DNA of 64,000 nucleotides. Origin: Gemmatimonadales bacterium. Its GTDB lineage: Bacteria; Gemmatimonadota; Gemmatimonadetes; Gemmatimonadales; GWC2-71-9. The position numbers were made by a program, and so were the translations under genes. The notes below the pieces were generated by a model. The model saw nothing but the letters and a program-made list of their open reading frames with translations, did not search any database and was not told the origin of the DNA. Of the stretch, positions 13,588 to 60,400 are shown in pieces (the stretch's first letter is position 1; each line of letters opens with the position of its first letter). Location of the stretch: contig DATLVU010000052.1 of assembly GCA_035577025.1 (NCBI GenBank), positions 7,303 to 71,302 of the forward strand, read 5' to 3'.

Positions 13588-16500
13588 TCAGGAAGTTCGC
13601 ACGAGGTGGACGCGGTCGGGACCGACGAGCTCGCGCAACGCGGCCAGCAGGTCGTCCGCCGCGTCCACGCGGAGCGAGCGGCTACGCAGCCGGGCGACCT
13701 CGCCCGGGGTGAGCGGACGGGCGCCGTCTTCGTCACTCCACTCGAGCAGGACCGGAGCCGGCCCCGGATGCGCGGCGCACAGGGCGGCGACGGCGCGCGT
13801 CGCGTCCACCGGTGCATCCGGGGACCAGCGCAAGGCGACGCCGATGGCCCCGCTCGCCTTCAGCTCGTCGAGCGGTTGGGCGGCTTCGACGATGAACGGG
13901 GCCTGCTCCTCCCCCCGGTCGCGCGCGCTGTGACTCCCCGACAGGAGCAGCGCGCGGTCGGTGCGGATCACCTCGTTCAACTTGGCCCAGGCCTCCGGGA
14001 ACACGAGCGCCTCCGCGGTGCCGTGAAAGTCCTCGAGCGTCAGCCGCGCGTACTCCGCGCCGGTCTTTTTCGAAATCTGACGCTTGACCATCGTCACCAC
14101 CGCTCCTACCCGCACCTTCTGTTCGCTCCAGTGACCCAGGGTGGCGGTGGTGCGCGTCCCGAAAAGCTCCACCTCGAGGCGGTATCGCGCGAGAGGGTGC
14201 CCGGAAATGAAGAAGCCGAGCACGGCCTTCTCGCGCGCCAGCCGATCGTGCTCGCTCCAGGGGGGGACGTCGGGAAGCGGTGAGCGGTGAGCGGTGAGCG
14301 GGGCCGCCTCACCGAACAGCCCGACCTGACCGGATTCGCGGTCCCCCTGGCGCGTTTGGGCTTCGGAAAAGGCGTGGTCCAGCGCCGCGACGAGCTGGGC
14401 GCGTTGGCCGCCCCCATTGCCGGTGAGCGAGTCGCATGCGCCGGCGTCGATCAGCGACTCGAGCACGCGCTTGTTGCAGAGGCGCAGGTCGATGCGGTCG
14501 CACAAATCCACGAGCGAGGCATAGGGGCCACCGCTCGCGCGGCCCGTGAGGATGGACTCGATCGCCCCCGCTCCGACGTTCTTGATGGCCCCGAGCCCGA
14601 ACCGGAGACGCCGATCGGCGACCACCGTGAACTTGAAACCCGATTCGTTCACGTCGGGGGGCAGCACCTCGAGCCCGAGCTCCCGGGCCTCGTTGATGTA
14701 GCGCACCACGGTATCGGTATCGCCGATCTCCGATGACAAGAGGGCCGACATGAACTCAGCCGGGTAGTGCGCCTTGAGCCACGCCGTCTGGTAGGAGAGA
14801 ACCGAGTAGGCGACCGCGTGCGACTTGTTGAACCCGTACCGGCCGAACGTCTCGATCTGCGCGGCGATATCCTCGATGACGCGTCGGGGGTGGCCGAGCC
14901 CCACGGCGCGCTCCACGAAGCGGCCGAGCTCGCGCTGAATCAGCTCCTTGTCCTTCTTGCCCACGGCTTTGCGCAGCACGTCGGCTTCGGCGAGCGTGAA
15001 GCCCCCGAGCACGTTCGCGATCCGCATCACCTGCTCCTGATAGGTGATGACGCCGTAGGTGGGCCTGAGAATCTCTTCGAGCGCGGGGTGCGGGTAGCGC
15101 ACCGGCTCGCGGCCGAGCTTGCGGTTGATGAACACCAGATGCATGCCGGTGTCGAGCGGGCCGGGACGGAGCAGCGCGTTCGTCGCCACCAGATCGTCGA
15201 AGCGATCGCACTTCATGCTGCGGAGGCAATCGGTGGCGAGCGGCGACTCGAACTGGAAGACACCGGCCGTACGACCGGAGCCGAGCAGCTCGTAGACCGC
15301 CGGGTCCGCGAGGTCGAGTCGGTTCATGTCGACGGTCACGCCGTGACGTTCGCGAACCATCGCGCAGGCATCGTGGATCACGGTCAGCGTGCGGAGCCCG
15401 AGGACGTCGATCTTGAGCATCCCGACCTTCTCGAGCGCGACCATGTCATACTGGGTGATGATCGCCTCCGCCTCCTGCGGCGCGAGGCACACGGGCACGT
15501 AATCGGTGAGCGGGCCCGGGGCGATCACCACGCCCGCCGCGTGTACGGAGGCGTGGCGCGCCAGGCCTTCGATCCGGGTGCCCAGCTCGAGGATCTTCCG
15601 AACGCGGTCGTCCTGGCGCGCGAGCTGCCGCAGCTCGGGGGACCGCTCGGAAGCTTCCGCCAGCGTGACGGCGATGCCGGGCCCGGCCGGAATCATCTTG
15701 GTGAAGCGATCCACCTCGCCCGGCTCCACGCGGAGCGTGCGGGCGACGTCGCGGAAGGCCGCGCGCGCCTTCAGCGTCCCGAAGGTGATGATCTGCCCGA
15801 CCGAGTCGCGCCCGTAACGCTCCCGGATGTACTGGATGACCTCCCCGCGGCGCTCGAAGCAGAAGTCGAGGTCGATGTCCGGCATCGAGATGCGCTCGGG
15901 ATTCAGGAACCGCTCGAACAGCAGGTCGAACGCGAGCGGGTCGATATCGGTGATGCCGAGGGCGTAGGCCACGAGCGAGCCCGCGGCCGAGCCCCGGCCG
16001 GGGCCCACCGGGATGCCTCGGTCCTTCGCTGCCTTCACGATGTCGTAGACGATCAGGAAGTAGCCGGCGTACCCGGTATGCGCGATGACCTGCAGCTCGT
16101 AGTCGAGCCGCGTCTGGACCTCCGGGGACAGCGTCTCTCCATAGCGCTGCCGCGCCCCGGCGCGCGCGAGGTGCACGAGCAGATCGTGGTCGGTCGCGAA
16201 CTCGGCCGGCCGCGGGTACTGGGGGAGGAAGTATCGCTTCTCGAAATCGAACTCGCACAGCCCCGCCACGCGTTGGGTTTCCTCCACCACCTCGGGGTGG
16301 TCGGGGAACAACGCGCGCATCTCTTGCTCGGCCTTGACGTAGCTCTCTTGACCGAAGAACCGGAAGCGGTTCGGATCGTCCAGGTCCTTGCCGGTGCCGA
16401 TCGCGAGGAGGACGTCGTGTGCCTCGGCGTCCTCTTTCTTCAGGTAATGCGCGTCATTGGTGGCCACGACCGGCAGGCCGAGCTCCCGGGCGAGCTGAAA

Positions 16501-17073
16501 CATGCCGGCGGTGACGGTGGTCTCATCGGCCAGGCCGTGGTTCTGGACTTCGAGCCAGAATCCGTCGGGACCGAACACCCGGGCGAAGTACTGGGCGCTC
16601 GCCTTCGCCGCCTCGTAGTTCCCCTGCCGCAGGTACAGGGCGATCTCGCCCGAAAGGCAGGCCGCGAGTCCGATCACTCCGTCGGCGTACTGCTCCAGGA
16701 CCTCACGGTCGATGCGGGGGCGACGGTAGAAGCCCTCCAGAAACCCGATGGAGGACAATTTGACGAGATGGTGATACCCGGTGCGGTTCTTGGCGAGGAG
16801 GACGAGGTGTGAGTAGGGGCCCGGCGCCTCGGCCGGTCGTTCGCGCCGGTGGCGATCGCCGAACGCGAGATACGCTTCGAAGCCCAGGATCGGACGCACC
16901 TTCCGGGCCCGCGCCTCGGCATAGAACTGCCACGCGCCGTGCAGATTGCCGTGGTCGGTGATCGCGAGCGAATCCATCCCGAGCGTCTGGACCCGCTCGA
17001 GCAAGTCGGGGATCCGGTTCGCGCCGTCGAGGAGGGAGTACTCGCTGTGGGTATGGAGGTGAACGAACGCCAT
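13588..17073 (-). CDS. dnaE: DNA polymerase III subunit alpha
   Basis: PHP-domain start MAFVHLHTHSEYSLLDG at ATG 17073; the ORF-track extension to 17316 is not coding-like. Polymerase core and C-terminal OB region are present. Confidence 0.95.
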   Translation of the reverse strand: MAFVHLHTHSEYSLLDGANRIPDLLERVQTLGMDSLAITDHGNLHGAWQFYAEARARKVRPILGFEAYLAFGDRHRRERPAEAPGPYSHLVLLAKNRTGYHHLVKLSSIGFLEGFYRRPRIDREVLEQYADGVIGLAACLSGEIALYLRQGNYEAAKASAQYFARVFGPDGFWLEVQNHGLADETTVTAGMFQLARELGLPVVATNDAHYLKKEDAEAHDVLLAIGTGKDLDDPNRFRFFGQESYVKAEQEMRALFPDHPEVVEETQRVAGLCEFDFEKRYFLPQYPRPAEFATDHDLLVHLARAGARQRYGETLSPEVQTRLDYELQVIAHTGYAGYFLIVYDIVKAAKDRGIPVGPGRGSAAGSLVAYALGITDIDPLAFDLLFERFLNPERISMPDIDLDFCFERRGEVIQYIRERYGRDSVGQIITFGTLKARAAFRDVARTLRVEPGEVDRFTKMIPAGPGIAVTLAEASERSPELRQLARQDDRVRKILELGTRIEGLARHASVHAAGVVIAPGPLTDYVPVCLAPQEAEAIITQYDMVALEKVGMLKIDVLGLRTLTVIHDACAMVRERHGVTVDMNRLDLADPAVYELLGSGRTAGVFQFESPLATDCLRSMKCDRFDDLVATNALLRPGPLDTGMHLVFINRKLGREPVRYPHPALEEILRPTYGVITYQEQVMRIANVLGGFTLAEADVLRKAVGKKDKELIQRELGRFVERAVGLGHPRRVIEDIAAQIETFGRYGFNKSHAVAYSVLSYQTAWLKAHYPAEFMSALLSSEIGDTDTVVRYINEARELGLEVLPPDVNESGFKFTVVADRRLRFGLGAIKNVGAGAIESILTGRASGGPYASLVDLCDRIDLRLCNKRVLESLIDAGACDSLTGNGGGQRAQLVAALDHAFSEAQTRQGDRESGQVGLFGEAAPLTAHRSPLPDVPPWSEHDRLAREKAVLGFFISGHPLARYRLEVELFGTRTTATLGHWSEQKVRVGAVVTMVKRQISKKTGAEYARLTLEDFHGTAEALVFPEAWAKLNEVIRTDRALLLSGSHSARDRGEEQAPFIVEAAQPLDELKASGAIGVALRWSPDAPVDATRAVAALCAAHPGPAPVLLEWSDEDGARPLTPGEVARLRSRSLRVDAADDLLAALRELVGPDRVHLVRTS
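14277..14304. repeat. heptamer tandem array (GCGGTGA)x3 + GCGGGGC inside dnaE
   Basis: Read directly from the sequence. It encodes LTAHRSPL in the variable linker upstream of EKAVLGFFISGHPL. Confidence 0.95.
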
Positions 17074-17146
17074 ACGGCTACGAGGAATGATACCGGCGCC
17101 TCGATGCATTGTCAAAAGCGCGCGGCGCCGGATATCTTGTGGCCCC

Positions 17147-18523
17147 ATGCGCCGCGTGGCGAGTCTGTTCGCGCTGATTGTGGTGATGGCGCTGCTGCAT
17201 CGGGCGACCGCGAGCAGCCCACTCGACGCGCGGGCCACGCTCGCGCTCGCGTTTTTGTTGCTCGCGGCATACCTGGGCGGGGACCTCGCGCGGCAGGCGC
17301 GACTCCCCCGTCTCACGGGCTACGTGCTGCTCGGATTCGCCGTCGGACCCGCCTGGCTCGGCGTGGTGCGACGCGACGAAGTGGAAGCCCTCGGCTTCCT
17401 CCAGGACGCCGCGCTCACCCTCATTGCCCTCACCGTGGGACTGACACTGCGCCTCGCCGAGCTGCGCCGGAATCGGCTCGCCCTGGCGCGCCTCGGTGCC
17501 GGCGCCGTCGCATTTCCCTTCGTCGTCGTATCGCTCATCGCCTTCACGATCACCCCCTGGCTCCCCTTCACGGCACATCAACCGTTCGGCGATCGCGCCG
17601 TGGTTGCGCTCGTGCTCGGCACGCTCGCCGCCGCTTCATCGCCGGTCGTGGCCATGGCCATGCTCGAGGAGTGCGACGCCCGGGGTCCCTTCGCGCGCGG
17701 TCTGCTCGACGTGTCGGTCGCCCAGGATCTAGTGGTGGTGATTCTGTTTGCGCTGGTCATCGCCGTGGGCAAGGCGATGGCGAGCTCGGGCACGGTCACG
17801 GTCTCCATCGCGGGGTTCGCGTTGGGTGGAGTCCTGGCGTCAGTTGCGGTGGGACTCCTGCTCGGGTACGCATCGCACCGTGCCCTGCGACTGGCGCGCC
17901 GCGATACGACGATCCTCGTGGTCGCCCTGGCGTTCCTCACTCCTCAGATCGCCCGCCTGGCGCATCTCGAGAGCCTGATCATCGCGCTCGGCGCGGGCTT
18001 CTATCTCGAGAACTTTTGTCCCGCCGCCGACATCGATCGCTTGCGTAGCGACCTGAAACGCGGGGCGCTCGTCGTGTACGTCCTCTTCTTCGCGCTCAGC
18101 GGGGCCGGGTTGCGGGTGGGTGTGCTCGCGGAGTGGTGGCCCTGGGCGTTGCTCCTGATCGGGTTACGGGTCGTGAGCGTGCGCTACGGTATCCGCTGGG
18201 CGGGACGCGACCCGAGTGTGACGCCCGCCCTCGCCGGGGAGGGCTGGCTCGGCCTCTTTTCCCAGGTGGGAATGGCGTCGGTGCTCGCGCAGCTCGCCCG
18301 TCGTGCGTTCCCCGAGTGGGGGGTCTCCCTCGAGGCCCTGCTCGTGGCGATGATTGGAGTCCACACGGTGGCTGGGCCGATCTGTTTCCGTCTAGCGCTC
18401 GAGCGCACCGGTGAAATCACCGATAAGACAGGGGGAGGGGGGTCACGCCATGCCGAAGCGTCTCTGGGCGATCGGGGTGAGGGTGGGGATGGGGGTGTCG
18501 TCGCTGCTGGCGGCGGCGTGTAG
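17147..18523 (+). CDS. cation:proton antiporter (Na+/H+ exchanger family)
   Basis: Polytopic membrane protein; LPRLTGYVLLGFAVGPAWLG is typical of CPA-type exchangers. ATG 17147 was chosen over the upstream extension. Confidence 0.8.
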   Translation: MRRVASLFALIVVMALLHRATASSPLDARATLALAFLLLAAYLGGDLARQARLPRLTGYVLLGFAVGPAWLGVVRRDEVEALGFLQDAALTLIALTVGLTLRLAELRRNRLALARLGAGAVAFPFVVVSLIAFTITPWLPFTAHQPFGDRAVVALVLGTLAAASSPVVAMAMLEECDARGPFARGLLDVSVAQDLVVVILFALVIAVGKAMASSGTVTVSIAGFALGGVLASVAVGLLLGYASHRALRLARRDTTILVVALAFLTPQIARLAHLESLIIALGAGFYLENFCPAADIDRLRSDLKRGALVVYVLFFALSGAGLRVGVLAEWWPWALLLIGLRVVSVRYGIRWAGRDPSVTPALAGEGWLGLFSQVGMASVLAQLARRAFPEWGVSLEALLVAMIGVHTVAGPICFRLALERTGEITDKTGGGGSRHAEASLGDRGEGGDGGVVAAGGGV

Positions 18524-25055: not shown

Positions 25056-25081
25056 GGCGGGGACGAATATAGTCCTAAGCG

Positions 25082-25127
25082 TCGAGACGGCTAGACGGCT
25101 AGCCGTCCAGCCATCTAGCCGTCTAGA
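25082..25127. repeat. 46-nt near-palindrome of octamer units in a divergent promoter region
   Basis: (GACGGCTA)x2 is followed by GCCGTCCA, GCCATCTA and GCCGTCTA, which are inverted copies. It lies between divergently transcribed genes whose starts are at 25055 and 25139. Confidence 0.9.
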
Positions 25128-26497: not shown

Positions 26498-26520
26498 AGA
26501 AACCGCTCTACGTCGTTTTT
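26493..26520 (+). terminator. rho-independent terminator
   Basis: CGTAGAG (26493-26499) pairs with CTCTACG (26506-26512) across a 6-nt loop, then TCGTTTTT. It overlaps the stop codon of the M20 gene. Confidence 0.65.
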
Positions 26521-27178
26521 ATACGGTTTTTTTGCTGAGGTTCCGCAGTTTATTAATGTCATGCTGGCTCAGCCCGCGCCCGCCGTAGCGCTCTTCCTTC
26601 CACGGATCGCCCCGCATGTGATAGCCGTTCTGCTCCCAAAAACCTGGGACGTCCGCGTCGAGCAGCGTCAGGCCCCGAACCCACTTGGCACTCTTCCAGA
26701 AATACAAGTGCGGTACGAGCAGACGGGCGGGCCCACCATGTTCCGGCGTCAGCCGCTCGCCGCTCCACTTCAACGCGATGAGGTTGTCCGGTCGATCCAG
26801 ATCGCCGAGCGGGAGGTTCGTGGTGAAACCCTGCTCGGCCGACACCAGGCAAAACGCCGCCTCCGGCTTTACACCCGCGCGGGCGAGTAACAGCTGCACC
26901 GGTACGCCCTCGAAGTCGTTGTCGAGCCGGCTCCACCGCGTCACGCAATGGATGTCGCAGTGCACCGACTTACGCGGTAGCTCGACCAGCTCGTCGTACG
27001 TCAGCGTGAACGGTCGCTCGACCAGGCCGGACACTTCGAACGTCCACGTGCGAGTGTCGACGCGTGGGACGTCGCCGTAGTGCAGGACGGGCCACTTCGT
27101 GGTGAGCACCTGCCCGGGGGGGAGCCGCTCCTGAGACCCGGGATTCCGTTGGCGCAGCTCGTCGAGGTACTTGGTCAC
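26519..27178 (-). CDS. sulfite-oxidase-like molybdopterin oxidoreductase
   Basis: DIHCVTRWS, HGGPARLLVPHLYFWKSAKWV and GFWEQNGYHMRGDPWKEERY motifs. GTG 27178 is the proposed start; the longest ORF runs to 27268 and overlaps lipB. Confidence 0.85.
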   Translation of the reverse strand: MTKYLDELRQRNPGSQERLPPGQVLTTKWPVLHYGDVPRVDTRTWTFEVSGLVERPFTLTYDELVELPRKSVHCDIHCVTRWSRLDNDFEGVPVQLLLARAGVKPEAAFCLVSAEQGFTTNLPLGDLDRPDNLIALKWSGERLTPEHGGPARLLVPHLYFWKSAKWVRGLTLLDADVPGFWEQNGYHMRGDPWKEERYGGRGLSQHDINKLRNLSKKTV

Positions 27179-27182
27179 GCCA

Positions 27183-27884
27183 TCAATACGTCTGCGCCGT
27201 TGCGCTGGGACGCAGCTCCGGGACGTCGGCGTCTGCGGGTCTCGTCGTAACACCGAAGGCCGTCTCAAATCCTCGCATCACTGCTTGCACGGCTCGCCCC
27301 CGCAGGTTCCGCTCCCCGCTCCCCGCTCCCCGCTCCCTCTCGACCGATGTCATCTCCACTCCGGCGATTCCGCACGGCACGATCCGGTCGAACTGCGTGA
27401 GATCGGTGGTGACGTTCAGGGCGAACCCATGCCACGTCACCCATTGCTTCACGTGAATCCCGATGCTCGCGATCTTGCGGTTGGACGTCCAGACGCCCGT
27501 ATGCGGCGGGTTCCGGCCGGCTGGAATCCCGAGCTCGGCGAGCGCGCTGATGATCGCGTCCTCCAGGGTCCGGAGATACCAATGCAGGTCGCGTCGGTGG
27601 CCCGTGAGGTCGAGAATCGGGTAGCCGACGAGCTGGCCTGGGCCATGGAAGGTGACATCGCCCCCGCGCTCGATCTCGAAGATGTCGATTCCCTCGCGAC
27701 GCAGGACGTGTGCGGCGTGGGAGGCGCGACCCAGCGTCACCACAGGTGGGTGCTCGAGCAGCAGGAGGAGGTCCTTCGCCAACCGCCCATCGATGCGAGC
27801 CTGGGCGAGGGCGCGCTGCCACGGTAGCGCATCGCCGTAGGGCACGAGCCCGGCATCAAGGACCTGCAGCGTACGATCGCCCAC
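27183..27884 (-). CDS. lipB: lipoyl(octanoyl) transferase
   Basis: RGGDVTFHGPGQLVGYPILDL and IVPCGIAGVEMTS motifs. Confidence 0.93.
   Translation of the reverse strand: MGDRTLQVLDAGLVPYGDALPWQRALAQARIDGRLAKDLLLLLEHPPVVTLGRASHAAHVLRREGIDIFEIERGGDVTFHGPGQLVGYPILDLTGHRRDLHWYLRTLEDAIISALAELGIPAGRNPPHTGVWTSNRKIASIGIHVKQWVTWHGFALNVTTDLTQFDRIVPCGIAGVEMTSVERERGAGSGERNLRGRAVQAVMRGFETAFGVTTRPADADVPELRPSATAQTY
27311..27338. repeat. heptamer tandem array (GCTCCCC)x3 + GCTCCCT inside lipB
   Basis: Read directly from the sequence. It encodes RERGAGSGER near the LipB C-terminus. Its flanks resemble those of the E2 copy at 30645-30680. Confidence 0.95.
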
Positions 27885-27888
27885 TCTG

Positions 27889-28302
27889 CTACCCCTTCAC
27901 CGCGTCATCGTGGCTTCCCTTGACTGCCCACGCGCTTCCAGTGGCACCGACGATGAAGCTCGTGACCGCCCATGCGATCAACCCCGGCGTCTGGAGCCAG
28001 CGATCGACGGGCCATGCGATGAAACCGACCAGCATGGCTCCGACTGCGGACATCACTCCGATGACACCACGCTGCCACAGGTTCTCGAGCGCGCGCGTGC
28101 GTCGCCAGCCGAACGTCGCCGCGACCGCGAGACCGGCGAACGTCGCGGCGATGACCGGGTCTCCGGCGATGTCCTCGTAGCCGGCGGTGCCGGCGTGATG
28201 TTCCAGGGACCGGACGATGGCGAGCCCCGCGACGATGGTGCCGCCGCCGAGCCCCACACCACTCGTGAGCGCGCCGAGCCCGATCGCCAGAGGGTCTTTC
28301 AC
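27889..28302 (-). CDS. small integral membrane protein (about 4 TM), unknown function
   Basis: Hydrophobic segments throughout. Wedged between lpd and lipB with a 4-nt overlap with lpd. Confidence 0.6.
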   Translation of the reverse strand: MKDPLAIGLGALTSGVGLGGGTIVAGLAIVRSLEHHAGTAGYEDIAGDPVIAATFAGLAVAATFGWRRTRALENLWQRGVIGVMSAVGAMLVGFIAWPVDRWLQTPGLIAWAVTSFIVGATGSAWAVKGSHDDAVKG

Positions 28303-29690
28303 ATGTCCACCACTCGGCCGAGCGAGTCGAGCGCGGCCTGGGCCACCGCCTCCGACAATGTCGGATGCGCGTGGATCGCGAGCTCGACTTCCTCCACCGT
28401 GTATTCGTTTTCTCGGGCCACTGTCAGCTCGTGGATAAGCTCGGACGCCTGGGCGCCGACGATGTGCGCGCCGAGGATTTCACCGTACTTCTTCTCGCGC
28501 AAAATCTTCACGAACCCTTCGGTCTCACCCGTGCCGCGCGCCCGCCCGTTCGCGGAAAAGGGGAAGCGGCCGGCCACGTACTCGAGCTTTCGCTCCTTGC
28601 AGAGATCCTCGGTGAGCCCGATGCTGGCCACTTCGGGTTGGCAGTAGGTCACGCTGGGGACGTTGTCGTACTTGATCGAATGCGGCTTCTGGCCGGCAAG
28701 GAGCTCTGTGACATAAACGCCTTCGCGCATTCCCTTGTGGGCGAGCATCGGTGGGCCCGCCACGTCACCGATGGCGTAGTAGCCGGGCGCCGTGGTCTGG
28801 AGGTTCTTGTCCACCTTGATGAAACCGCGCTCGTTGATTTGGACACCGCACTCCGCCAGGCCGATGTTCTCGGTGTTCACGGCGCGCCCGGCGGCCATGA
28901 GGACGGCCGCCACCTCGAGCTTCTGGGTCGCGCCGCCCGCTTCGACCTCGAGCGTCACCTTGTCCTTGGCCGGCGTCCCTTTCTTGACCTTGGCTGCCGG
29001 GATCACCTCAATGCCCCGTTTCTTGTAGCTCCTCGTGAGCGCGTCCGACGCCTCGGCATCCTCGAGTGGCAGGATACGGGCAAGCGCTTCGATCAAGGTG
29101 ACCTTGGTTCCGAAGGCGTGGAAGATATTGGCGAACTCCATCCCCACGGCGCCCGCTCCGATGATGGCGAGCGACGTCGGCGCCTTCTCGAGGAACAGGG
29201 CCTCGTCGGAGGAGATCACGGTGGTCTTGTTGATCTCGAGTCCGATCTGCGGCAGACCTTTGACGCGCGACCCGGTCGCGATCAGGACGGCCTTCTTCGC
29301 GTCGTAGACGTCGCTGCCCACTTTCACCTTGCGCCCCGGTTGCAGGATGCCGGTGCCTCTGACGACGGTGACTTTATTCTTCTTCATCAGGAACTCGACG
29401 CCCTTCGAGTTCTGATCGCTCACCTTGCGTGAGCGCTGCATCGCGACTCCATAGTCGGTCTTCACGGCGCCGGCCTCGACGCCGAACTCCTTGGCGTCGC
29501 GCAGCATCGAGGCGATGTGCGCCGAGTGGAGGAGGGCCTTCGTAGGAATGCAGCCGATGTTGACGCACACGCCACCGAGCTTGTCCTTCTCGACGAGGGC
29601 CGTGGTCATGCCGAGCTGCGCCGAGCGGATCGCGGCGACGTAGCCCGCGGGCCCGCCGCCCAGAATGATGACGTCGAACGTATTCGCCAC
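28299..29690 (-). CDS. lpdA: dihydrolipoyl dehydrogenase (E3)
   Basis: GGGPAGYVAAIRSAQLG, the redox disulfide GGVCVNIGCIPTKALL, and a C-terminal HAHPTLSE. Confidence 0.95.
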   Translation of the reverse strand: MANTFDVIILGGGPAGYVAAIRSAQLGMTTALVEKDKLGGVCVNIGCIPTKALLHSAHIASMLRDAKEFGVEAGAVKTDYGVAMQRSRKVSDQNSKGVEFLMKKNKVTVVRGTGILQPGRKVKVGSDVYDAKKAVLIATGSRVKGLPQIGLEINKTTVISSDEALFLEKAPTSLAIIGAGAVGMEFANIFHAFGTKVTLIEALARILPLEDAEASDALTRSYKKRGIEVIPAAKVKKGTPAKDKVTLEVEAGGATQKLEVAAVLMAAGRAVNTENIGLAECGVQINERGFIKVDKNLQTTAPGYYAIGDVAGPPMLAHKGMREGVYVTELLAGQKPHSIKYDNVPSVTYCQPEVASIGLTEDLCKERKLEYVAGRFPFSANGRARGTGETEGFVKILREKKYGEILGAHIVGAQASELIHELTVARENEYTVEEVELAIHAHPTLSEAVAQAALDSLGRVVDM

Positions 29691-29702
29691 TGATGATTCT
29701 CC

Positions 29703-30974
29703 CTAAAGCAGCATTGCGAGTGGATTCTCGAGCATCTGTTTCAGCGTTTTCAAGAACGCCGCGCCCGTGGCGCCGTCGATGACGCGGTGGTCGCAGCTCA
29801 TGGTAATGCGCATCCGGCGCCCCGGCGCAAGCTGACCGCCCACGACCACCGGCTTCTGCGTGACGGACCCGATCGCGAGGATACCAGCCTCGGGCGGATT
29901 GATCACCGCCGTGAACTGGTCGATCTCGAACATCCCCAGGTTCGAGACGGAGAACGTCGATCCGGTGTACTCGGTCGGCTGGAGCCGACGGCTACGAGCC
30001 TTCTCGGCCAGCTCCCGCGCCTCCCGCCCGATCTCGACGAGCGATTTGCGATCGGCGTTCCGGATCACCGGAGTAATCAGCCCGTCCTCCACCGCCACCG
30101 CGATCCCGATGTGAACCTCGTTCCAGTAGCGAATGTGGTCGTCCTGGAACCAGGCGTTGCAGGCCCGATGCTTTACGAGCGCCAGTGCGGTCGCCTTGAT
30201 GATCACATCGTTGTAGGAAATCTTCCCCTGGTCCCCGCGCTGCTGGTTGAGCGCATCGCGTGCTTCGGCCGCCCGCTCCATGTCCACTTCGGTCGTAAGG
30301 AAGAAATGGGGGATGGGGCCGAGGGACGTGACGAGCCGCTTGGCGATGGTCTTGCGGATCTGGGTGAGGGGGACGTCGTCGTAGGCCGCTCCTCCTCCTC
30401 CCACCACCGGGGAGCGGGGAGCGGGGAGCGGTACCTCGCGCTGCACGGCTGGCTGCGTAGCTACGGCCCGACCTTCCAGGTCCCGCTTGGTGACCCGTCC
30501 GCCAGGACCCGTTCCGGTCACTAGCTTCAGGTCAACGCCGGCATCTTTTGCCATCCGTCTCGCCAGCGGGGAGGCCTTCACCCGCGTAGCGTCGGCTGGC
30601 GTCGCCACGGAGGGTACCGCTCCCCGCTCCCCGCTCCCGACGTTCAGGACCGCTCCCCGCTCCCCACTCCCTGTCGCCGCAGCGACCGCCGGCCGGGGGG
30701 AGGGCACGGAAGCCGGTGCGGCGGCGGACGTCTCTCCGGGGCCGAGAATGACCGCCACCACCTTACCCACCGGCACCGTCTGACCTTCGGCGACACTCAC
30801 CTGCCGCAGCACGCCGTCCGCGCGCGCGATCAGGTCCATCACGGCCTTGTCGGTCTCGACCTCCGCCAACGTGTCGCCGGTCTTCACGGCGTCGCCGTCG
30901 CCCTTGTGCCACTTCACCACGCGTCCCTCCTCCATCGTCGGGGAGAGCGCTTCCATGTAAACGTTCGTGGCCAC
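29703..30974 (-). CDS. pdhC: dihydrolipoamide acetyltransferase (E2) of the pyruvate dehydrogenase complex
   Basis: Lipoyl domain (LAEVETDKAVMDL), PSBD (ASPLARRMAKDAGVDLKLVTGTGPGGRVTKRDLE) and catalytic domain (SCDHRVIDGA). Confidence 0.93.
   Translation of the reverse strand: MATNVYMEALSPTMEEGRVVKWHKGDGDAVKTGDTLAEVETDKAVMDLIARADGVLRQVSVAEGQTVPVGKVVAVILGPGETSAAAPASVPSPRPAVAAATGSGERGAVLNVGSGERGAVPSVATPADATRVKASPLARRMAKDAGVDLKLVTGTGPGGRVTKRDLEGRAVATQPAVQREVPLPAPRSPVVGGGGAAYDDVPLTQIRKTIAKRLVTSLGPIPHFFLTTEVDMERAAEARDALNQQRGDQGKISYNDVIIKATALALVKHRACNAWFQDDHIRYWNEVHIGIAVAVEDGLITPVIRNADRKSLVEIGREARELAEKARSRRLQPTEYTGSTFSVSNLGMFEIDQFTAVINPPEAGILAIGSVTQKPVVVGGQLAPGRRMRITMSCDHRVIDGATGAAFLKTLKQMLENPLAMLL
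30409..30435. repeat. (GGGGAGC)x3-GGTACC, left arm of a 26-bp perfect inverted repeat inside E2
   Basis: 30410-30435 is the exact reverse complement of 30613-30638. Confidence 0.95.
30613..30672. repeat. GGTACC-(GCTCCCC)n right arm plus a 33-nt tandem duplication inside E2
   Basis: Arrays lie at 30619-30639 and 30652-30672. They encode GSGERGAVLNV followed by GSGERGAVPSV. Confidence 0.95.
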
Positions 30975-30990
30975 GGGGGGGAGGGCGGCG

Positions 30991-31974
30991 TCAGTCGAGG
31001 TACAGCGTGCGTCGCGCAGCGGCGACCACGCGCTCGACGCTCGGCTTCGCCAGGCGCTCGAGCTGCTTGTTGTACGGCATGGGCACGTCGGCCTGGGTCA
31101 CGCGCAGGACCGGCGCGTCGAGCTGGTCGAAAGCGTCCCGTTGGATCACGTCGACGACCTGCGCGCCGATGCCGCAGTGCGGCCACCCCTCCTCCACCAC
31201 GACCGCGCGGTTGGTGCGCGCCACGGACTCGAGGATCGCGGCTTCATCGAGCGGCCGCAGCGAGCGCAGGTCGAGCACTTCGGCCGAGACCCCTTCGTGT
31301 TCGGCGAGCTGCTCGGCGGCCTTAAGGGCGACGCTCACGGTCTTGGAGTGGCACACGATGGTAACGTCGCGACCCGGCCGTTTCACGTCGGCGCGACCGA
31401 GGGGAACGACGTGCTCCCCCTCCGGCACGTCGCCTTTGAGGTTGTACAGCATCTCGCCCTCGAGCACGATGACCGGGTTGTTGTCCCGGATCGCCGACTT
31501 GAGCAGACCCTTGGCATCCGCCGGCGTCGCGGGCGCCACGACCTTCAGGCCCGGGATGTGGGCCAGCCAGGACTCCCAGGCCTGGGAGTGCTGGGCCGCG
31601 AGCTGGAGCGCGGCGCCGTTCGGGCCGCGGAACACGATTGGGACCGGAATCTGGCCGCCCGACTCGTACAGCATCTTCGCGGCGGAGTTGACGATCTGGT
31701 CCAGGGCGAGGACCGCGAAGTTCCACGTCATGAACTCGACCACGGGCCGCAGACCCGCCATGGCGGCCCCGACGCCGATCCCCGCATAGCCCAGCTCCGC
31801 AATCGGGGTGTCCACCACGCGCGTCGGCCCGAACTCTTCGAGCAGGCCCCGGCTCACCTTGTAGGCACCCTGGTAGACACCGACTTCCTCCCCGATGAGG
31901 AACACGTCGGGATCCCGTTGCATCTCCTCGCGGAGCGCCTGATTGAGCGCATCGCGATAGGTGAGCGTGGCCAT
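30991..31974 (-). CDS. pdhB: pyruvate dehydrogenase E1 component subunit beta
   Basis: Begins MATLTYRDALNQALREEMQRDPDVFLIGEEVG. The start overlaps the pdhA stop (ATGA). The ORF-track extension to 32670 is a read-through of the same frame. Confidence 0.93.
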   Translation of the reverse strand: MATLTYRDALNQALREEMQRDPDVFLIGEEVGVYQGAYKVSRGLLEEFGPTRVVDTPIAELGYAGIGVGAAMAGLRPVVEFMTWNFAVLALDQIVNSAAKMLYESGGQIPVPIVFRGPNGAALQLAAQHSQAWESWLAHIPGLKVVAPATPADAKGLLKSAIRDNNPVIVLEGEMLYNLKGDVPEGEHVVPLGRADVKRPGRDVTIVCHSKTVSVALKAAEQLAEHEGVSAEVLDLRSLRPLDEAAILESVARTNRAVVVEEGWPHCGIGAQVVDVIQRDAFDQLDAPVLRVTQADVPMPYNKQLERLAKPSVERVVAAARRTLYLD

Positions 31975-32972
31975 CAGTCGGCGAGCACGTGCGTGGTGAG
32001 CTCGGCGGGATCGGGGTCCGGACTCGCGTCCGCGAATCGGACCGCTTCCTCCACTTCCGCGCGGATCTCCGCGTCGAGCGCGTCGAGGCCGGGCTGATCC
32101 AGCGTGCCCTCTTCCTTGAGCTTCATGGCGAGCTGCGAGATCGGGTCGCGCTTGCGCTGCTCTTCCACCTCTTCCTTGGTCCGATATACGCCGTGGAGCG
32201 GATCGGACATGGAGTGGCCCATGTAGCGATAGGTCCGCACCTCGAGCAGAGTGGGGTGCCCCCGCTTTCGGGCCCGTTCCACGGCCCGGCGCGTCGCGTT
32301 GTATACGGCGAGGGCGTCCATGCCATCCACGAGCTCGGCGGCCATGTCGTAGCTGCACGCGTGCTCCACCACGTCCGTCACGGCCGCGACGCGCTCGAAG
32401 GCCGTGCCCATGCCGTAACGGTTGTTCTCGCAGCAGAAGATGACCGGCAGCTTGTACACGGACGCCATGTTCAGCGCCTCGTGGAAGGCGCCGATATTGA
32501 CGGCCGCCTCTCCGAAGTAGCAGAGGCAGACCTGATCGCCGCCGCGATAGCGGATCGCGAAGCCGATGCCGGCCGCGAGGGGAATGTGGCCCCCGACGAT
32601 GCCGTGACCTCCCATGAAGCGCTTCTCGGCGTCGAACAGGTGCATCGACCCGCCTTTGCCCTTCGAGCACCCGGTCGCCTTCCCGAACAACTCGGCCATC
32701 ACGGCGTTGGGAGACACGCCCCGCACCAATGCCTGCCCGTGCTCGCGATACGAGGAGATCACGTAGTCGTCGTCGCGCAGCGCGGCGAGCGAGCCGACCG
32801 CGACCGCTTCCTGGCCGATGTACAAATGACAGAATCCGCCGATCTTGCCCAGCGCGTACGCTTCTGCGGCCTTCTCCTCGAAGTGCCGAATGAGGAGCAT
32901 CTGGCGGAGCATGCGGCGCTCCACGTCAGAGGACGCGGTCTTGTTGGCGGGCTGGGCGGTCGCCGTAGCCAT
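31974..32972 (-). CDS. pdhA: pyruvate dehydrogenase E1 component subunit alpha
   Basis: LLIRHFEEKAAEAYALGKIGGFCHLYIGQEA and KGKGGSMH motifs. The start is at Met58 of the tracked ORF, derived from the ORF-track frame. Confidence 0.92.
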   Translation of the reverse strand: MATATAQPANKTASSDVERRMLRQMLLIRHFEEKAAEAYALGKIGGFCHLYIGQEAVAVGSLAALRDDDYVISSYREHGQALVRGVSPNAVMAELFGKATGCSKGKGGSMHLFDAEKRFMGGHGIVGGHIPLAAGIGFAIRYRGGDQVCLCYFGEAAVNIGAFHEALNMASVYKLPVIFCCENNRYGMGTAFERVAAVTDVVEHACSYDMAAELVDGMDALAVYNATRRAVERARKRGHPTLLEVRTYRYMGHSMSDPLHGVYRTKEEVEEQRKRDPISQLAMKLKEEGTLDQPGLDALDAEIRAEVEEAVRFADASPDPDPAELTTHVLAD

Positions 32973-32991
32973 GGCGGTCGGGGGGGGGCGG

Positions 32992-33885
32992 CTAGCGGGA
33001 GGCGGACAGGTTCGCGCGCTCGACCTGCTCCCATGCGTGGTAGCTCGACCGCACGAGCGGTCCCGCCTCCACGTGGCGATACCCCATGGCCATGCCGAGG
33101 CGACGCAGCTCGGCGAACTCGTCGGGTCGATAGTAGCGCGCAATGGGAAGATGCTGGCTCGACGGACGGAGGTACTGGCCGACCGTCAGGATGTCGACAC
33201 CCTGCGCCCGCAGATCGCGCATCGCGACCAACAGCTCATCCCACTCCTCGCCGAGGCCGCAGATGAGGCCAGATTTGGTAAGCAGCCTCGCGTCGAGCGC
33301 CTTTGCTCGCCGCAACAGCTCGAGCGCCCGTGGATAGCGTCCCCCCGGCCTGGCCAGGCGGTACAGCCGCTCGACCGTTTCGAGATTGTGGTTGAGGATA
33401 TCGGGCTTCGCCTCTACCACGATCCTCAGTGCCTCGGCGCTGCCCTTGAAGTCGGGGATGAGCACCTCGACGGACGTCCCGGGGGTGCGTCGCCGGATCT
33501 CGGCGATCGCGGCCGCGAACATCTCCGCGCCGCCGTTGGGCAGGTCGTCGCGGTCCACGCTCGTGATGACCACGTGCCGGAGCCCCATCCGCTCGACCGC
33601 CGTGGCGAGGCGGACCGGTTCGTGGCGGTCGAGAGCGGCCGGCGTGCCGTGGGCGACCGCGCAGTAAGTGCAGTTTCGAGTGCAGACGTCGCCCAGGATC
33701 ATGAACGTGGCGGCGCGGTGCTCCCAGCACTCCCCGATGTTGGGGCAGTGCGCCTCTTCGCACACCGTGTGGAGCGACAAGTCTCGCATGAGGTGCTTCA
33801 GCTCGGTGTAGTTCGGGCCCCCGGGGGCAGGCACCTTGAGCCATGCGGGTTTACGAGCGGCGAGCTGGGTGAGCGTTGTGGCCAT
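32992..33885 (-). CDS. lipA: lipoyl synthase
   Basis: CEEAHCPNIGECW and the radical-SAM motif CTRNCTYCAV. Confidence 0.95.
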   Translation of the reverse strand: MATTLTQLAARKPAWLKVPAPGGPNYTELKHLMRDLSLHTVCEEAHCPNIGECWEHRAATFMILGDVCTRNCTYCAVAHGTPAALDRHEPVRLATAVERMGLRHVVITSVDRDDLPNGGAEMFAAAIAEIRRRTPGTSVEVLIPDFKGSAEALRIVVEAKPDILNHNLETVERLYRLARPGGRYPRALELLRRAKALDARLLTKSGLICGLGEEWDELLVAMRDLRAQGVDILTVGQYLRPSSQHLPIARYYRPDEFAELRRLGMAMGYRHVEAGPLVRSSYHAWEQVERANLSASR

Positions 33886-33933
33886 CAGGATTCGGAAGAT
33901 AGTGGAGCCCGAGAGACGGCAAAAGACCGAATT

Positions 33934-34938: not shown

Positions 34939-34952
34939 CGGGGTGTCCGGTG

Positions 34953-41936: not shown

Positions 41937-42630
41937 CCGAGGTCGGTTGCGAGGGCCGGACCTTCGGCTCGTGGCGCTCGCGCTGGCGCGCGGGGACGCC
42001 GCGCGCCGCGCGCGTTACGAGCGCGTGATGCTCGAGCAGGGACCCGATGAGCTCCTCGACGAGCCGGGCCTGCTCGAGGCCCTGCTCGCGGTGCGCACGC
42101 TCGCCGTTCCATCGCCCGCGCTGTTCGCCTACGTCGCGGTCCGTCACACGCTCCGGGCCGCCGGCGTCGACGACCGGCTGCTCGCCGACTACCTCGCGGC
42201 GCTCCTGCTGGAGTTCGGCGATCACGACCGGCGTTCCCGCGTGCGGAGTGGGGCCGACGACGAGACCTATCACTATCTGGTCGACATGGTGGAGGACCTC
42301 GCGGGGCTCGACGACGCTGGAGAACGCGGCTTCCTGCTGCGTGTGCACCTCGGGAACTACAGCCTGTGGCTTGCCGGTCTGTTTCCTGATTACATCGCCG
42401 CCCGGCGCTCGCGGAAAGGTGGGCCCGACCTCCCGTATTACGACGAGCTGGGCCGCCAGGGCTACCGCCTCGCCGCGGCGCATCGCCTCGCCGAACGCTT
42501 CGGTGTGGCTCCGATCTATCGCGCCGCCGCCGACCGGTTCCCGACGCTCCGCGTGGCGTTCAATCGCCTGAGCGACCGGGTGTTCTTCCCGAACGTCAGT
42601 ACTCCCGAGAAGATACTTCGAAATCTGTGA
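41920..42630 (+). CDS. hypothetical protein
   Basis: 236-aa ORF from ATG 41920, or from the internal ATG 42025. No recognisable motif. Convergent with the SCP2 gene. Confidence 0.5.
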   Translation: MILANIRGRLRGPDLRLVALALARGDAARRARYERVMLEQGPDELLDEPGLLEALLAVRTLAVPSPALFAYVAVRHTLRAAGVDDRLLADYLAALLLEFGDHDRRSRVRSGADDETYHYLVDMVEDLAGLDDAGERGFLLRVHLGNYSLWLAGLFPDYIAARRSRKGGPDLPYYDELGRQGYRLAAAHRLAERFGVAPIYRAAADRFPTLRVAFNRLSDRVFFPNVSTPEKILRNL

Positions 42631-42688
42631 GCCGTGAGCGGTGAGCGGGACTGTAACGACCTCTCACCGCTTACCGCTCCCCGCTCAC
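42627..42688. repeat. inverted heptamer arrays forming a long hairpin between convergent genes (likely bidirectional terminator)
   Basis: GTGAGCC GTGAGCG GTGAGCG (42627-42647), a 16-nt spacer, then TCACCGC TTACCGC TCCCCGC TCAC (42664-42688). It overlaps both stop codons (42628-42630 and 42685-42687). Confidence 0.85.
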
Positions 42689-43790: not shown

Positions 43791-44305
43791 GCAGGGGGGA
43801 CGGGGGCGGGGGGCGCTCCGAACAGCGGGCACCGCGGGTTGCTCATGTTCGCCCACTGCACCCGCACGCCGAACAAGGGGATCGTGCGGTCGCCCGCGAC
43901 GAGCTGGCCGATGCTCGGATACCCCGGCGGCGGTCGCTGCGACTCGTAGATGAGCACACCCTGCGCTCGTTGCGTGGAGTCGTCCACCACGAGGAGCGCA
44001 TAGACGGTCGAGTCGGACACCGATGTGGCGGGGAATCCCGAGCCCTGGTAGTCCATCGTCAATGCGCCCTTGGTGTAGGTCACCTGCACCGTGCTTTGCG
44101 CTGTCGTACCGGCGACGCGAACGGGCAGCGATGCCGGCAACCCCCGGGGCGGCTCGGTGAGCACGAACGGGAGGTGCCTCAGCTGTTCCTGGATGAGCGA
44201 CGGGGAAATGAGGAGCGCCATCCCGCAGGTGGGAGAGCGCGTCCGGTCCCCGCCGCACGCCACGGCGAAGATCGTGGCCACGCGTGCCAGGTCGCGGGGC
44301 ATCAT
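43787..44305 (-). CDS. hypothetical lipoprotein
   Basis: MMPRDLARVATIFAVACGG lipobox. The start overlaps the upstream stop. I recognise no family. Confidence 0.6.
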   Translation of the reverse strand: MMPRDLARVATIFAVACGGDRTRSPTCGMALLISPSLIQEQLRHLPFVLTEPPRGLPASLPVRVAGTTAQSTVQVTYTKGALTMDYQGSGFPATSVSDSTVYALLVVDDSTQRAQGVLIYESQRPPPGYPSIGQLVAGDRTIPLFGVRVQWANMSNPRCPLFGAPPAPVPPA

Positions 44306-51980: not shown

Positions 51981-52008
51981 GGGAGGTTGGGGAGGTTGGG
52001 GGAGGTTA
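51981..52008. repeat. three tandem GGGAGGTT(G/A) units (Shine-Dalgarno-like GGAGG cores)
   Basis: Read directly from the sequence; the period is 9-10 nt. It lies in the intergenic region, next to the left REP. Confidence 0.9.
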
Positions 52009-52454: not shown

Positions 52455-52470
52455 TGGACTGGTGCCTTTA

Positions 52471-52590
52471 CTGACCCCGGGCGCAAGCCCGGGGATCACC
52501 AAAGGCTCGATGAGGGGTCTCCCTGACCCCGGGCGCAAGCCCGGGGATCACCAAAGGTTCGACGAGAGGTCTCCCTGACCCCGGGCGCAA
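52471..52590. repeat. tandem REP array, 52-bp unit x about 2.3
   Basis: CTGACCCCGGGCGCAAGCCCGGGG occurs at 52471 and 52523, with a truncated copy at 52575. The inter-REP segments are nearly identical (ATCACCAAAGG(C/T)TCGA(T/C)GAG(G/A)GGTCTCC). Confidence 0.95.
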
Positions 52591-54009: not shown

Positions 54010-54038
54010 CGTCCCGATGCGCCCACGTGCGTCCGGCG

Positions 54039-55067: not shown

Positions 55068-56118
<1,051 letters not shown>

Positions 56119-56122
<4 letters not shown>

Positions 56123-57045
56123 ACCGCCTCCTTGCGGGGGTCGAGCGCGTCGCGCAGCGCGTCGCCCACGGCGTTCAGCGCCATCACGACCAGGGAGATC
56201 GCCAGGCCGGGGAAGGTCGCGGACCAGGGCGCGACCGCCATCTTGGACCACCCGTCGGCGATCATGTTCCCCCAGCTCGGCGCTGGTGATGGCACGCCCA
56301 TGCCCAGAAATGACAGCCCGGCTTCGAGCAGCATGACGTTGCCGATGCCCAACGCCGCCGAAACGATGATCGGCGCGGCGGCGTTGGGCAACACGTGGCG
56401 GACGATCACCCGACTCGGTCTCGCACCCAGCGCCCGCGCCGCGGCCACGTACTCACGCTCGCGCAGGCTCAGGACCTCGGCGCGCACCAGCCGGCTGGTG
56501 GCGAACCAGCCCGTGAGTCCGATGACGAGCACGAGCACCGGTACCGCGATGCGGTCCCACAGCGCCACGACGACGAGCAAGGCGAAGATGCGTGGCATCG
56601 CGAGTCCAACGTCCACCAGGCGCATCAGCGCCGTGTCTACCCAGCGACGAAAGTATCCGGCCGTCGCGCCCACTGCCGCGCCGATGGTCACGGCCACGAA
56701 CATCGCGAGCGCCCCGATGCCCAACGAGATCCGGGCCCCGTGCGCGAGCCGGCTCCAGACGTCCCGGCTGAGTGGGTCGGTGCCGAGGATGTAACGCGTC
56801 GACGGCGCGTGATTCTGGAGGTGATCGACGTCGATCTGCTCGTACGGCTGGAACGGCGCCACGAGCGGCGCGGCGAGCGCCACCATGACGAAGAAGGTCA
56901 GCACGAACAACCCGGGCGCGGCGGTGGGGTGGCGGAAGAACCGCCGCCCCGACGCGCTTGCCCCCGCGCGCCGCCGGACAGCCCCGACGACGATCAACGC
57001 GAGCACCGCGGCCCCGCTGAGGGCGACCCAGTTCCAGATATTCAT
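56119..57045 (-). CDS. ABC transporter permease (OppC/DppC-like)
   Basis: 6-TM BPD-transport permease with the EAA-loop-like region [24 protein letters not shown]. Confidence 0.9.
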
Positions 57046-59687: not shown

Positions 59688-59692
59688 GGCGC

Positions 59693-60400
59693 CTAAGATT
59701 TCACCAGCGCCCTGATGGAGCAAGTGAGCTCCGCGCCCCAGGTGGCAACAATGGCATTGGCCACCTCATCGAAGCTCACACGTCGTCCGAGGACGGCGGA
59801 CAACGTCGTCTCACCGCCCACCGCTGACCGCTGACGGCTCACGATGCTGACGATGTCCTGTGAGCCGTCCAACAGGATCGATCCATGTTGCAAGAAGGCG
59901 CTCCGCATCCGGACCTGCGCCGAGCCGATCAGCTTGCGGCCGGCGACGAGCACCTCGCCGCCAGTTGGAAAGGCGAAGCACGCCGCAGGATGGTGGAAGA
60001 TGGTCGAGGATGGTGGAGGATGGTGGAGGGCCAGCGTGGCGTCCACCCCAAGGGACCGAAGCGCGAGCGCGAGTCGGTCGTGGATCGCGTGGTACGCTCT
60101 CCGCAACCCGCCGAAGACGGCGATCGGGGCGGCGACGGCGTAGGTGACCTCGTCCTGGTGCCACACGGCTCGCCCACCCGTTGGCCGCCGGACGACATCG
60201 AGGCCGAGACGGGCGATCGCGGCCTGATCGTATTGGTCCGCGGGCTCGTTTCGTCCCAATGAGAGGCAGGGAGGGTCGAAGCGGTAGAGGCGGAGAAAGG
60301 CTTGGCCGGTGACGTTGGACTCCGCGAGAAGGGCCGCGTCGGAGGCCATGTTCTCCGCACCGGTTCGGCCCGTCGCCTCCTTAATCAGCCGCCAGCGCAT
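59693..60400 (-). CDS. lipoate-protein ligase A family protein (LplA/LipM-like octanoyl/lipoyl transferase)
   Basis: [50 protein letters not shown]. The start is taken at ATG 60400 (MRWRLIKE). Confidence 0.85.
59811..59845. repeat. degenerate heptamer array TCACCGC CCACCGC TGACCGC TGACGGC TCACGAT inside the lplA-like gene
   Basis: Read directly from the sequence. It belongs to the same TCMCCGC family as 14277 and 42664. Confidence 0.85.
59988..60030. repeat. decamer tandem array (GGATGGTGGA-like)x4 inside the lplA-like gene
   Basis: GGATGGTGGA AGATGGTCGA GGATGGTGGA GGATGGTGGA GGG. It encodes [13 protein letters not shown] immediately before the conserved ACFAFP motif. Confidence 0.95.

Follow-up and report, generated by a model that had tools for sequence, protein, structure and literature searches.

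What are the short head-to-tail heptanucleotide arrays that recur along a 64-kb stretch of a Gemmatimonadales soil genome (67.7% G+C; hereafter the window), in frame within dnaE, lipB and the gene for the E2 acyltransferase of a 2-oxoacid dehydrogenase complex as well as between genes? Comparison of the window with related loci indicated that they are a real, non-random and old class of repeat. On balance, we read them as heptanucleotide microsatellites resembling the STRR (short tandemly repeated repetitive) elements of cyanobacteria, spread clade-wide in Gemmatimonadales and homogenised in DNA under little constraint.

Counting of exact arrays of at least three copies in the window gave five with period 7, one with period 6 and none with any other period from 4 to 12. 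Shuffled controls did not reproduce this excess: the five exact period-7 arrays compare with 0.03 in dinucleotide shuffles and 0.0 in codon shuffles within called genes. Allowing up to one mismatch, the window holds 7 arrays versus 0.13 and 0.01 in the two controls, respectively, and allowing up to two mismatches it holds 11 versus 1.0 and 0.42. The unit is GCGGGGA or GCGGTGA in four of the five exact arrays and GGGAAGG in the remaining one. Consistently, 10 of the 21 pairs of separate window sites carry units that differ by at most one base, compared with 13% for unrelated arrays. The arrays are listed below with copy numbers and percent matches, mostly from Tandem Repeats Finder (TRF).

14276-14304, minus strand: dnaE linker array (TRF 14276-14301, 3.7 copies, 100% match; sense strand CGCTCAC x3.7)
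27309-27338, minus strand: lipB loop array, site C (TRF 27309-27337, 4.1 copies, 100%; sense strand GAGCGGG x4.1)
30408-30431, minus strand: E2 linker 2 array, site B (TRF 3.4 copies, 100%; C-rich sense strand)
30617-30641, minus strand: second array of E2 linker 1, a duplicate of the first at a spacing of 33 nt (TRF 30617-30638, 3.1 copies, 100%)
30650-30672, minus strand: first array of E2 linker 1, site A (TRF 30650-30671, 3.1 copies, 93%; G-rich sense strand)
38961-38982, minus strand: exact GGGAAGG x3.1, a unit other than GCGGKGA, near the N-terminus of the GT2-DUF3108 gene
42627-42648, unstranded: left arm of the hairpin between convergent genes, GTGAGCC/GTGAGCG/GTGAGCG (TRF 3.1 copies, 93%)
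42659-42688 (TRF), unstranded: right arm of the same hairpin, TCACCGC/TTACCGC/TCCCCGC/TCAC (4.3 copies, 78%)
43794-43815, minus strand: array in a peptidase C26 gene, G-rich, with a period of 6-7 and outside the GCGGKGA type
59811-59845, minus strand: degenerate GCGGTGA-like array in the LplA-like ligase gene (TRF 59820-59839, 2.9 copies, 92%)
37996-38033, minus strand: hexamer array (GGGAGC) x6.3 in the linker of the GT2-DUF3108 protein

The hexamer array has the highest copy number of all arrays in the window, and its unit is the family heptamer minus one G. Since a hexamer stays in frame at any copy number, the highest copy count is expected there if in-frame units expand freely. The original prediction had described six groups of arrays from the window; all of them are present as described with a period of 7, and their frequency lies far above chance in both shuffled controls, as it had claimed. 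The array at 42664-42684 indeed mixes TCACCGC and TCCCCGC units. The array in the LplA-like gene stands at the position given, and yet one array of its quality is met about once per window by chance; it is not individually significant, and we therefore treat it as unproven. The predicted identities of dnaE, lipB, E2 and the LplA-like ligase were confirmed by Pfam, which also identified lpd.

13588-17316, minus strand: dnaE, host to one array
27183-27884, minus strand: lipB, host to one array
28299-29690, minus strand: lpd
29703-30974, minus strand: E2 acyltransferase of the 2-oxoacid dehydrogenase complex, host to three arrays
59693-60424, minus strand: LplA-like ligase

As had been predicted, coding arrays preserve the reading frame and are found in linkers or loops: in the window they sit between domains and the open reading frames (ORFs) remain open. 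The dnaE array, with the HhH domain on one side and the OB fold on the other, encodes PLTAHRSPLP, and the lipB array encodes ERGAGSGER past the catalytic core, between 'MTSVERE' and the C-terminal helix. In E2, each of the two arrays in the linker from the lipoyl domain to the E3-binding domain (PSBD) encodes GSGERGA, whereas the inverted array in the linker from the PSBD to the catalytic domain encodes PLPAPRSP; the arrays of linker 1 and linker 2 are thus mutually inverted, with the PSBD coding region between them. Because 7 and 3 have no common factor, three units encode one 7-residue peptide with no peptide repeat, so that the repeat is a feature of the DNA and not of the protein. This bears on the idea that the repeats arose from selection on linker peptides, or that they are an assembly artefact. 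The encoded peptides are linker-like, being rich in G/S/E/R or P/A/S, and related peptides recur in orthologues. However, the 7-nt period yields no peptide repeat although the units are exactly identical as DNA, and identical units turn up in either orientation and also between genes. An artefact is equally hard to sustain, as the arrays (18–34 nt) are shorter than the assembly k-mers given in the contig records (k127, k141) and recur in more than 80 independent assemblies. The data at hand contradict this explanation, in either form, and we give it almost no credence.

We then compared the window with its relatives. With the E2 protein, 80 loci were recovered, all from Gemmatimonadales or Gemmatimonadota soil metagenome-assembled genomes (E2 57–88% identical to that of the window at the amino-acid level; 1.29 Mb of DNA); an exact-sequence look-up of the E2 protein itself returned no record. 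A second set of 80 loci came from a metagenome scan with the protein upstream of the convergent junction at 42.6 kb, and a third sample comprised 120 DnaE homologues, with DNA checked for three. The fetched loci are 7–21 kb each and carry L-numbers here, the window being WIN. In the 1.29 Mb, period 7 accounts for 70 exact arrays of at least three copies, compared with 2–9 for each of periods 5, 6, 8 and 9 and none for periods 10–12; the 27 arrays of period 4 are about at the level of dinucleotide shuffles for that period in the window. A heavy tail of the array-length distribution is unique to period 7. The units themselves vary across relatives (AGCGGGG, AAACGGG, AGCAGGG, ACGGGGG, ACGGCTG, AGAGGGG and others). 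The original prediction of a single GCGG(G/T)GA family therefore stands within the genome, given the 10 of 21 closely matching site pairs above, but not across genomes, where the unit changes and the period is constant.

The arrays occupy the same sites in related genomes. All 81 E2 genes have a single reading frame, and with array residues marked on protein alignments, the E2 arrays fall in both linkers at identical alignment columns in most genomes. The lipB arrays are confined to one loop, from 'MTSVERE' to 'LW..AV..GF', whose length is unchanged whether the array is perfect, imperfect or of a different unit. Scoring the best 21-nt window against a threshold of at least 12 of 14 periodic matches, we detected periodicity at E2 linker 1 in 57%, at E2 linker 2 in 79% and at the lipB loop in 73% of genomes, compared with 2.6% of random 120-nt segments. 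The DnaE segment from 'LFG' to 'PDVPPW' has a constant length in the 120 homologues; relatives more than about 70% identical show PLTAHRS, PLPAPRS, PVPRPPS or IPHPASR there, whereas the segment is non-repetitive in more distant ones, and heptamer arrays were confirmed in the dnaE DNA of the three homologues. The suggestion that the arrays are lineage-specific insertions thus failed, as those of lipB, E2 and dnaE lie in the same columns, mostly at the same length, in most of the 80+ genomes and 120 DnaE homologues. The check that had been proposed on orthologue peptides gave a divided answer: related peptides do occur at the same sites, but the DNA is mostly repetitive there and the peptide drifts as the periodicity decays.

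Taking the E2 loci together with the window, there is about one array per 10 kb. Array density does not depend on G+C (rho 0.04), and the loci show no clear split into array-rich and array-poor ones (23 without arrays versus 18.9 expected). By crude gene calls on 1.35 Mb of related DNA, 53% of arrays lie in ORFs, which cover 83% of the DNA, and arrays are about four times denser in non-coding DNA. The earlier statement that they reside mostly in housekeeping genes accordingly did not hold, about half being coding. By sense strand, 37 coding arrays are G-rich and 39 are C-rich. G-quadruplex formation and internal Shine-Dalgarno-like pausing were rejected as general explanations, from sequence only, because the sense strand is C-rich in half of the coding arrays and G runs are missing from the intergenic units.

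How do the units change while the sites persist? Across genomes, the units are linked in a network of single-base steps (GACGGGG is also seen), and arrays are often perfect although the unit varies by genome; a change therefore spreads to every unit, and all copies of one array change jointly. The encoded peptides are exact translations of the respective units.

GAGCGGG: ERGAGSGER
GAAAGGG: ERGKGKGE
GAAACGG: ETGNGKRET
GAGCAGG: EQGAGSREQ
GAGACGG: ETGDGRRE
GAGAAGG: EKGEGRRE

Changes in length occur as well. The lipB arrays are doubled as two-unit hybrids in L009 and L086 (52 nt) and expanded in L070, all in frame, and 21-nt intermediates are observed. The peptidase C26 array has an extra 18 nt, (GGGGGC)x3, at ~43800 in a relative 97.7% identical to the window. 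Local divergence is fast: 7 of 30 nt differ in the dnaE array between WIN and L081, whose genomes are 94.4% identical overall, and the 100 nt of the 42.6-kb hairpin contain about 50 of the differences that separate L093 from WIN. All three left-arm units there are TGAGCGG in one of the two genomes and GGAGCGG in its counterpart. Additionally, units are shared between sites of one genome. Identical units were found at sites A and B in 15 of 41 genomes (mean 3.7 and maximum 10 in 2000 permutations of genomes) and at sites B and C in 9 of 40 (mean 2.4, maximum 10), with five different concordant units for each site pair; as the genomes are related, these counts are not independent events. Among 144 exact arrays of at least 18 nt each, the unit is identical in 44% of comparisons within one genome at a distance of up to 400 nt, and between different genomes in 12% at the same site and 3.4% at different sites. 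Array perfection is weakly correlated between sites of one genome (rho 0.20–0.35), and for this reason a simple on/off state of genome-wide maintenance was dropped.

A point absent from the original prediction is that the arrays usually form inverted pairs, that is, hairpins. When an inverted or direct 14-mer was sought within 400 nt of each of the 144 arrays, with paired arms counted twice, 80 arrays had an inverted and 31 a direct partner at up to two mismatches, and 36 and 9, respectively, at none. In the E2 mRNA, the linker 1 array (30650-30672) is predicted to pair with the linker 2 array (30408-30431); the stem, about 26 bp long (z −5.0), closes around the part that codes for the PSBD. 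In the gap between E2 and lpd, about 27 genomes have a hairpin with four-unit arms that runs from the E2 stop codon to just before the lpd Shine-Dalgarno sequence, its unit being GAACGCG, GAATGCG, GATTGCG, GAAGTGC or CGGCGTG, whereas 31 genomes, the window among them, have only a short spacer (~20–40 nt). Single E2–lpd hairpin sequences fold at −68 to −70 kcal/mol, each with z below −5. RNAalifold on the 27 genomes gave 23 pairs, of which 16 show double compensatory changes. The variant units of the two arms, however, are not mirrored for better pairing, and the covariation is therefore not taken as proof of a selected structure. Permutation of the units of one arm left complementarity unchanged (23.6 versus 23.8 of 28 positions), so that the arms match at the level of the unit, as co-homogenisation predicts. 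Of separate note, long loops of the E2–lpd hairpin in L008, L009 and L021 hold a T-arm-like motif, GGGGTTCGACCCC or GGGTCGAACCCC; ARAGORN found no tRNA in the loci with such GGGGTTCGACCCC loops. Right after the dnaE array, GGTGAG...CTCACC at 14296-14318 forms an inverted partner about one unit long, and this 'solitary' array may, judging by its letters, keep a vestigial second arm.

A hairpin of this kind also fills the gap between two convergent genes in the window.

42627-42687, unstranded: hairpin of two facing heptamer arms between two convergent genes

Each of the two genes takes its TGA stop codon from the outermost units of this hairpin, which folds at −47.8 kcal/mol (z −4.2). At the orthologous junction in the second set of 80 loci, relatives have heptamer-array hairpins with at least six different units. 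Others have hairpins of octamer arrays, tandem GGCGGACG or TCGGACGG, in L100, L109, L111, L113, L133 and L135, so the period is not strictly 7 in every lineage; L145, L146, L154 and L160 have decamer arrays of the GGAGGTTGG type after the stop codon of the matched gene. In L104, L114, L115, L119, L120, L126, L136, L156-L164 and others, that stop codon is directly followed by a perfect REP-like palindrome, GTAGGGGCGCAGCATGCTGCGCCCCTAC, of which two copies are sometimes present; GTAGGGGCGC, which the window lacks, was counted 58 times over 35 of the fetched loci. In some relatives there is no hairpin and the two stop codons are 3 nt apart. Flanks that are only 80–86% identical to those of the window accompany the window's own hairpin, loop included, in L147, yet L093, 97.7% identical to the window, has another hairpin allele; the alleles are thus either recombinationally exchanged or recurrently switching. 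Given the variety of occupants, the junction may be a place where a hairpin of some type is favoured.

These hairpins raise the question of whether a selected structure of RNA (or single-stranded DNA) is the function, the tandem heptamer texture being a by-product. Pointing that way are the compensatory changes at 16 of 23 E2–lpd pairs, the very stable predicted stems (z −5.0 to −5.7, and −4.2), the exact fit of the hairpins from a stop codon to the next Shine-Dalgarno sequence or between convergent stops, and the occupation of one junction by many unrelated hairpin types. Such a function, however, leaves the period of 7 without a reason, the solitary lipB and dnaE arrays have no partner, and the variant units are not positioned for maximal pairing. 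Neither the E2–lpd nor the 42.6-kb hairpin is followed by a U-tract for intrinsic termination, and a search of the window against Rfam at gathering thresholds gave no family match. We consider selection on structure as the whole account a rather improbable one.

Could the arrays, above all the inverted pairs, instead be small mobile or templated elements, with a trans-acting enzyme or template (REPIN/RAYT-like or cassette-like) that sets the genome-specific unit? Supporting this idea, unit sharing within the genome spans kilobases and 45 kb of the window, clades differ in whether they have the E2–lpd hairpin (31 genomes have a short spacer instead), and the convergent junction holds unrelated hairpin types, including the REP-like GTAG... 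palindrome, that do not track the flanks. Nevertheless, neither conserved flanks nor target duplications were seen, a single genome contains several unrelated units, and the coding arrays keep their columns and length over deep divergence. The arrays also grade into local sequence, stop codons included, and no transposase is linked to them, though no search aimed at one was made. Elements of this sort are an unlikely origin, while still deserving some weight.

The arrays were also compared with known repeats. Their closest counterparts are the STRR of cyanobacteria, which the original prediction had rightly named as precedent (PMC2670836). STRR are 7-bp repeats that form a hairpin between hupS and hupL and have been proposed to act in transcript stability or translational coupling (PMC2670836). 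Like them, the arrays here have a 7-nt unit, are short and tandem, are dispersed at many chromosomal loci and, when facing each other, form intercistronic hairpins (hupS–hupL in cyanobacteria, E2–lpd here) for which the same two roles can be proposed. STRR reportedly also lie inside a functional gene, that of the RNase P RNA (Vioque 1997). The differences are the phylum (Gemmatimonadota), the G+C-rich units, the many arrays in frame within essential protein genes and the clade-wide occupancy of sites with concerted unit turnover, for which a limited literature search found no STRR description. The named units STRR1-3 of heterocyst-forming cyanobacteria are presumably not those of the window (GAGCGGG, GAGCGGT and others). 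The second counterpart is the class of long simple sequence repeats (LSSR). According to the survey of Mrazek, Guo and Shah (2007), as related in PMC4679880, heptanucleotides are the commonest class of 5–11-nt repeats in several prokaryotic lineages, polymerase slippage is the proposed cause, and 7 nt is possibly the length of the polymerase contact. LSSR share with our arrays the predominance of heptanucleotides, the counts far above chance and the scatter over lineages; the arrays are head-to-tail heptamers of at least three copies (five exact ones) and commoner than composition predicts. By the same survey, coding LSSR favour units in multiples of three, whereas heptamers persist here in coding DNA as three- or four-unit blocks, and LSSR are long and variable where our copy numbers are low and stable.

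TAACTGA direct repeats of Beggiatoaceae, cyanobacteria and some Bacteroidetes (PMC4679880) are likewise heptamer repeats, of 2–6 copies at hundreds of loci, and a few in ORFs are read as a 7-residue peptide repeat. They keep one fixed unit across phyla, are almost all intergenic just upstream of start codons and include only one reported indirect repeat; here, in contrast, units are many, every second array is coding and most pairs are inverted. REP/REPIN elements resemble the arrays as genome-specific, short, hairpin-forming repeats at gene ends, often in inverted doublets, and the REP-like GTAG palindrome of other relatives occupies the very junction of the heptamer hairpins. Unlike these strictly extragenic, near-identical copies with a GTAG head, our arms are tandem heptamers without that head, copies share only the unit, and about half are in ORFs. 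Nor are the arrays phase-variable contingency loci, in which changes of unit number switch a gene's reading frame on and off, as all 81 E2 genes are in frame, the hosts are essential and copy number is unchanged within the same strain. In the literature searched, no relevant paper was found on Gemmatimonadetes with heptanucleotide or tandem repeats. In sum, the arrays have the structure of heptanucleotide LSSR and behave like STRR, but stand apart by their phylum, by their units, by lying often in frame within essential genes and by keeping their positions clade-wide while the units turn over in concert.

Omega-type repressors and HutP read 7-nt repeats. One may ask whether the heptads are binding sites of such a protein, of the omega ribbon-helix-helix type on DNA or the HutP or cold-shock type on RNA. 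The fixed spacing of 7 nt, the minimum of three units, the direct and inverted arrangements and the conserved positions are in keeping with it, and for CspB one protein per heptamer is mentioned (PMC4679880). It is nonetheless a very unlikely explanation, as far as motifs can tell: each genome has many units with no motif common to all, coding arrays lie in both orientations equally (37 versus 39), and the sites are inside essential enzymes and at gene ends, not in promoters as omega-type operators would be.

We thus return to STRR-like microsatellites. In the mechanism that we propose, short arrays of 3–5 units would have arisen long ago in spacers between genes, in linkers between domains and in surface loops. 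Slippage and gene conversion, through units that pair out of register in replication or repair, would then keep the units identical, so that a point change in one unit is either lost or sweeps the whole array; slippage or conversion is probably the motor. Within genes, an array could lengthen or shorten only by 21 nt (three units) at a time and survive, the frame never being broken and the array being read as a 7-residue cyclic peptide. Inverted arms would be homogenised jointly, through correction of an intrastrand hairpin heteroduplex or through template switching, and the long hairpins at gene ends probably serve as mRNA elements, for 3′-end formation, stability or processing.

Several observations weigh against this account. 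It does not explain why the period is 7. Copy number did not change in a same-strain contig, which aligns without gaps at 99.95% identity and has 8 mismatches, none of them in arrays. The E2–lpd arms are steady at about four units in many clades under no frame constraint, although free slippage should blur their length, and the alleles of the 42.6-kb hairpin do not follow the phylogeny of their flanks. Units are shared farther than local slippage alone would carry them: they are identical in 11% of comparisons within one genome at more than 1 kb, about three times the 3.4% between genomes at different sites, and sites A and C agree in 11 of 30 genomes (permutation mean 2.8, maximum 8 in 2000 permutations). 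Finally, the statistics rest on related genomes and on a locus picked for having arrays; array density in the second locus set is just 0.22 per 10 kb, and the E2 region is therefore enriched by the way it was chosen.

Some neighbouring features of the window are recorded here for completeness. The gene order lipA, E1 alpha, E1 beta, E2, lpd, a small ORF and lipB (window ~26500-36000) is conserved in L084 and L087-L090, and the genes for lipoate synthesis and attachment are thus embedded in the 2-oxoacid dehydrogenase operon; glutamate dehydrogenase and dnaE lie farther along, in the same order in relatives. An intergenic 52-nt unit is repeated 2.3 times (95% match) at 52471-52590, each copy holding a hairpin, CCCCGGGC-GCAA-GCCCGGGG, with an 8-bp stem and a GNRA-type loop that has no Rfam match at the gathering score. 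Between two divergent genes, at 25080-25126, CGTCTAGC-like repeats of period 8 (5.9 copies) include a perfect 14-bp palindrome, GACGGCTAGCCGTC, and look like operators in a divergent promoter region. A decamer family comprises AGGATGGTGG x4.3 inside the LplA-like gene (59987-60029) and GGGAGGTTGG x2.8 (51981-52007), to which the GGAGGTTGG-type arrays of the junction hairpins in other relatives are akin.

Room for a trans-acting process is left by three things that the microsatellite reading does not account for: why 7 nt is preferred, why arm length is stable and why distant loci share units. It is a long shot, but a clade-specific templated or hairpin-targeted conversion acting in trans might rewrite hundreds of arrays, those of dnaE, lipB and E2 included, to the genome-specific unit, or the G-rich and C-rich arrays from lipA through E1, E2 and lpd to lipB, which lie in one operon, might be functional long-range pairing partners in the polycistronic mRNA. 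If either were true, the arrays would be more than passive microsatellites. Bacterial simple repeats are usually viewed as short-lived, hypermutable switches; the heptamer arrays, by contrast, hold their positions in essential genes and at gene junctions across an order-level clade. Their sequence meanwhile changes jointly inside each array, in both arms of a hairpin and, in part, from locus to locus, which amounts to molecular drive in bacterial coding DNA. Collectively, our results extend the STRR phenomenon of cyanobacteria to a second phylum and provide a comparative data set on why 7 nt is favoured and whether the hairpins act on mRNA. In practical terms, fast-evolving low-complexity peptides of this origin in conserved proteins can mislead alignment and annotation.

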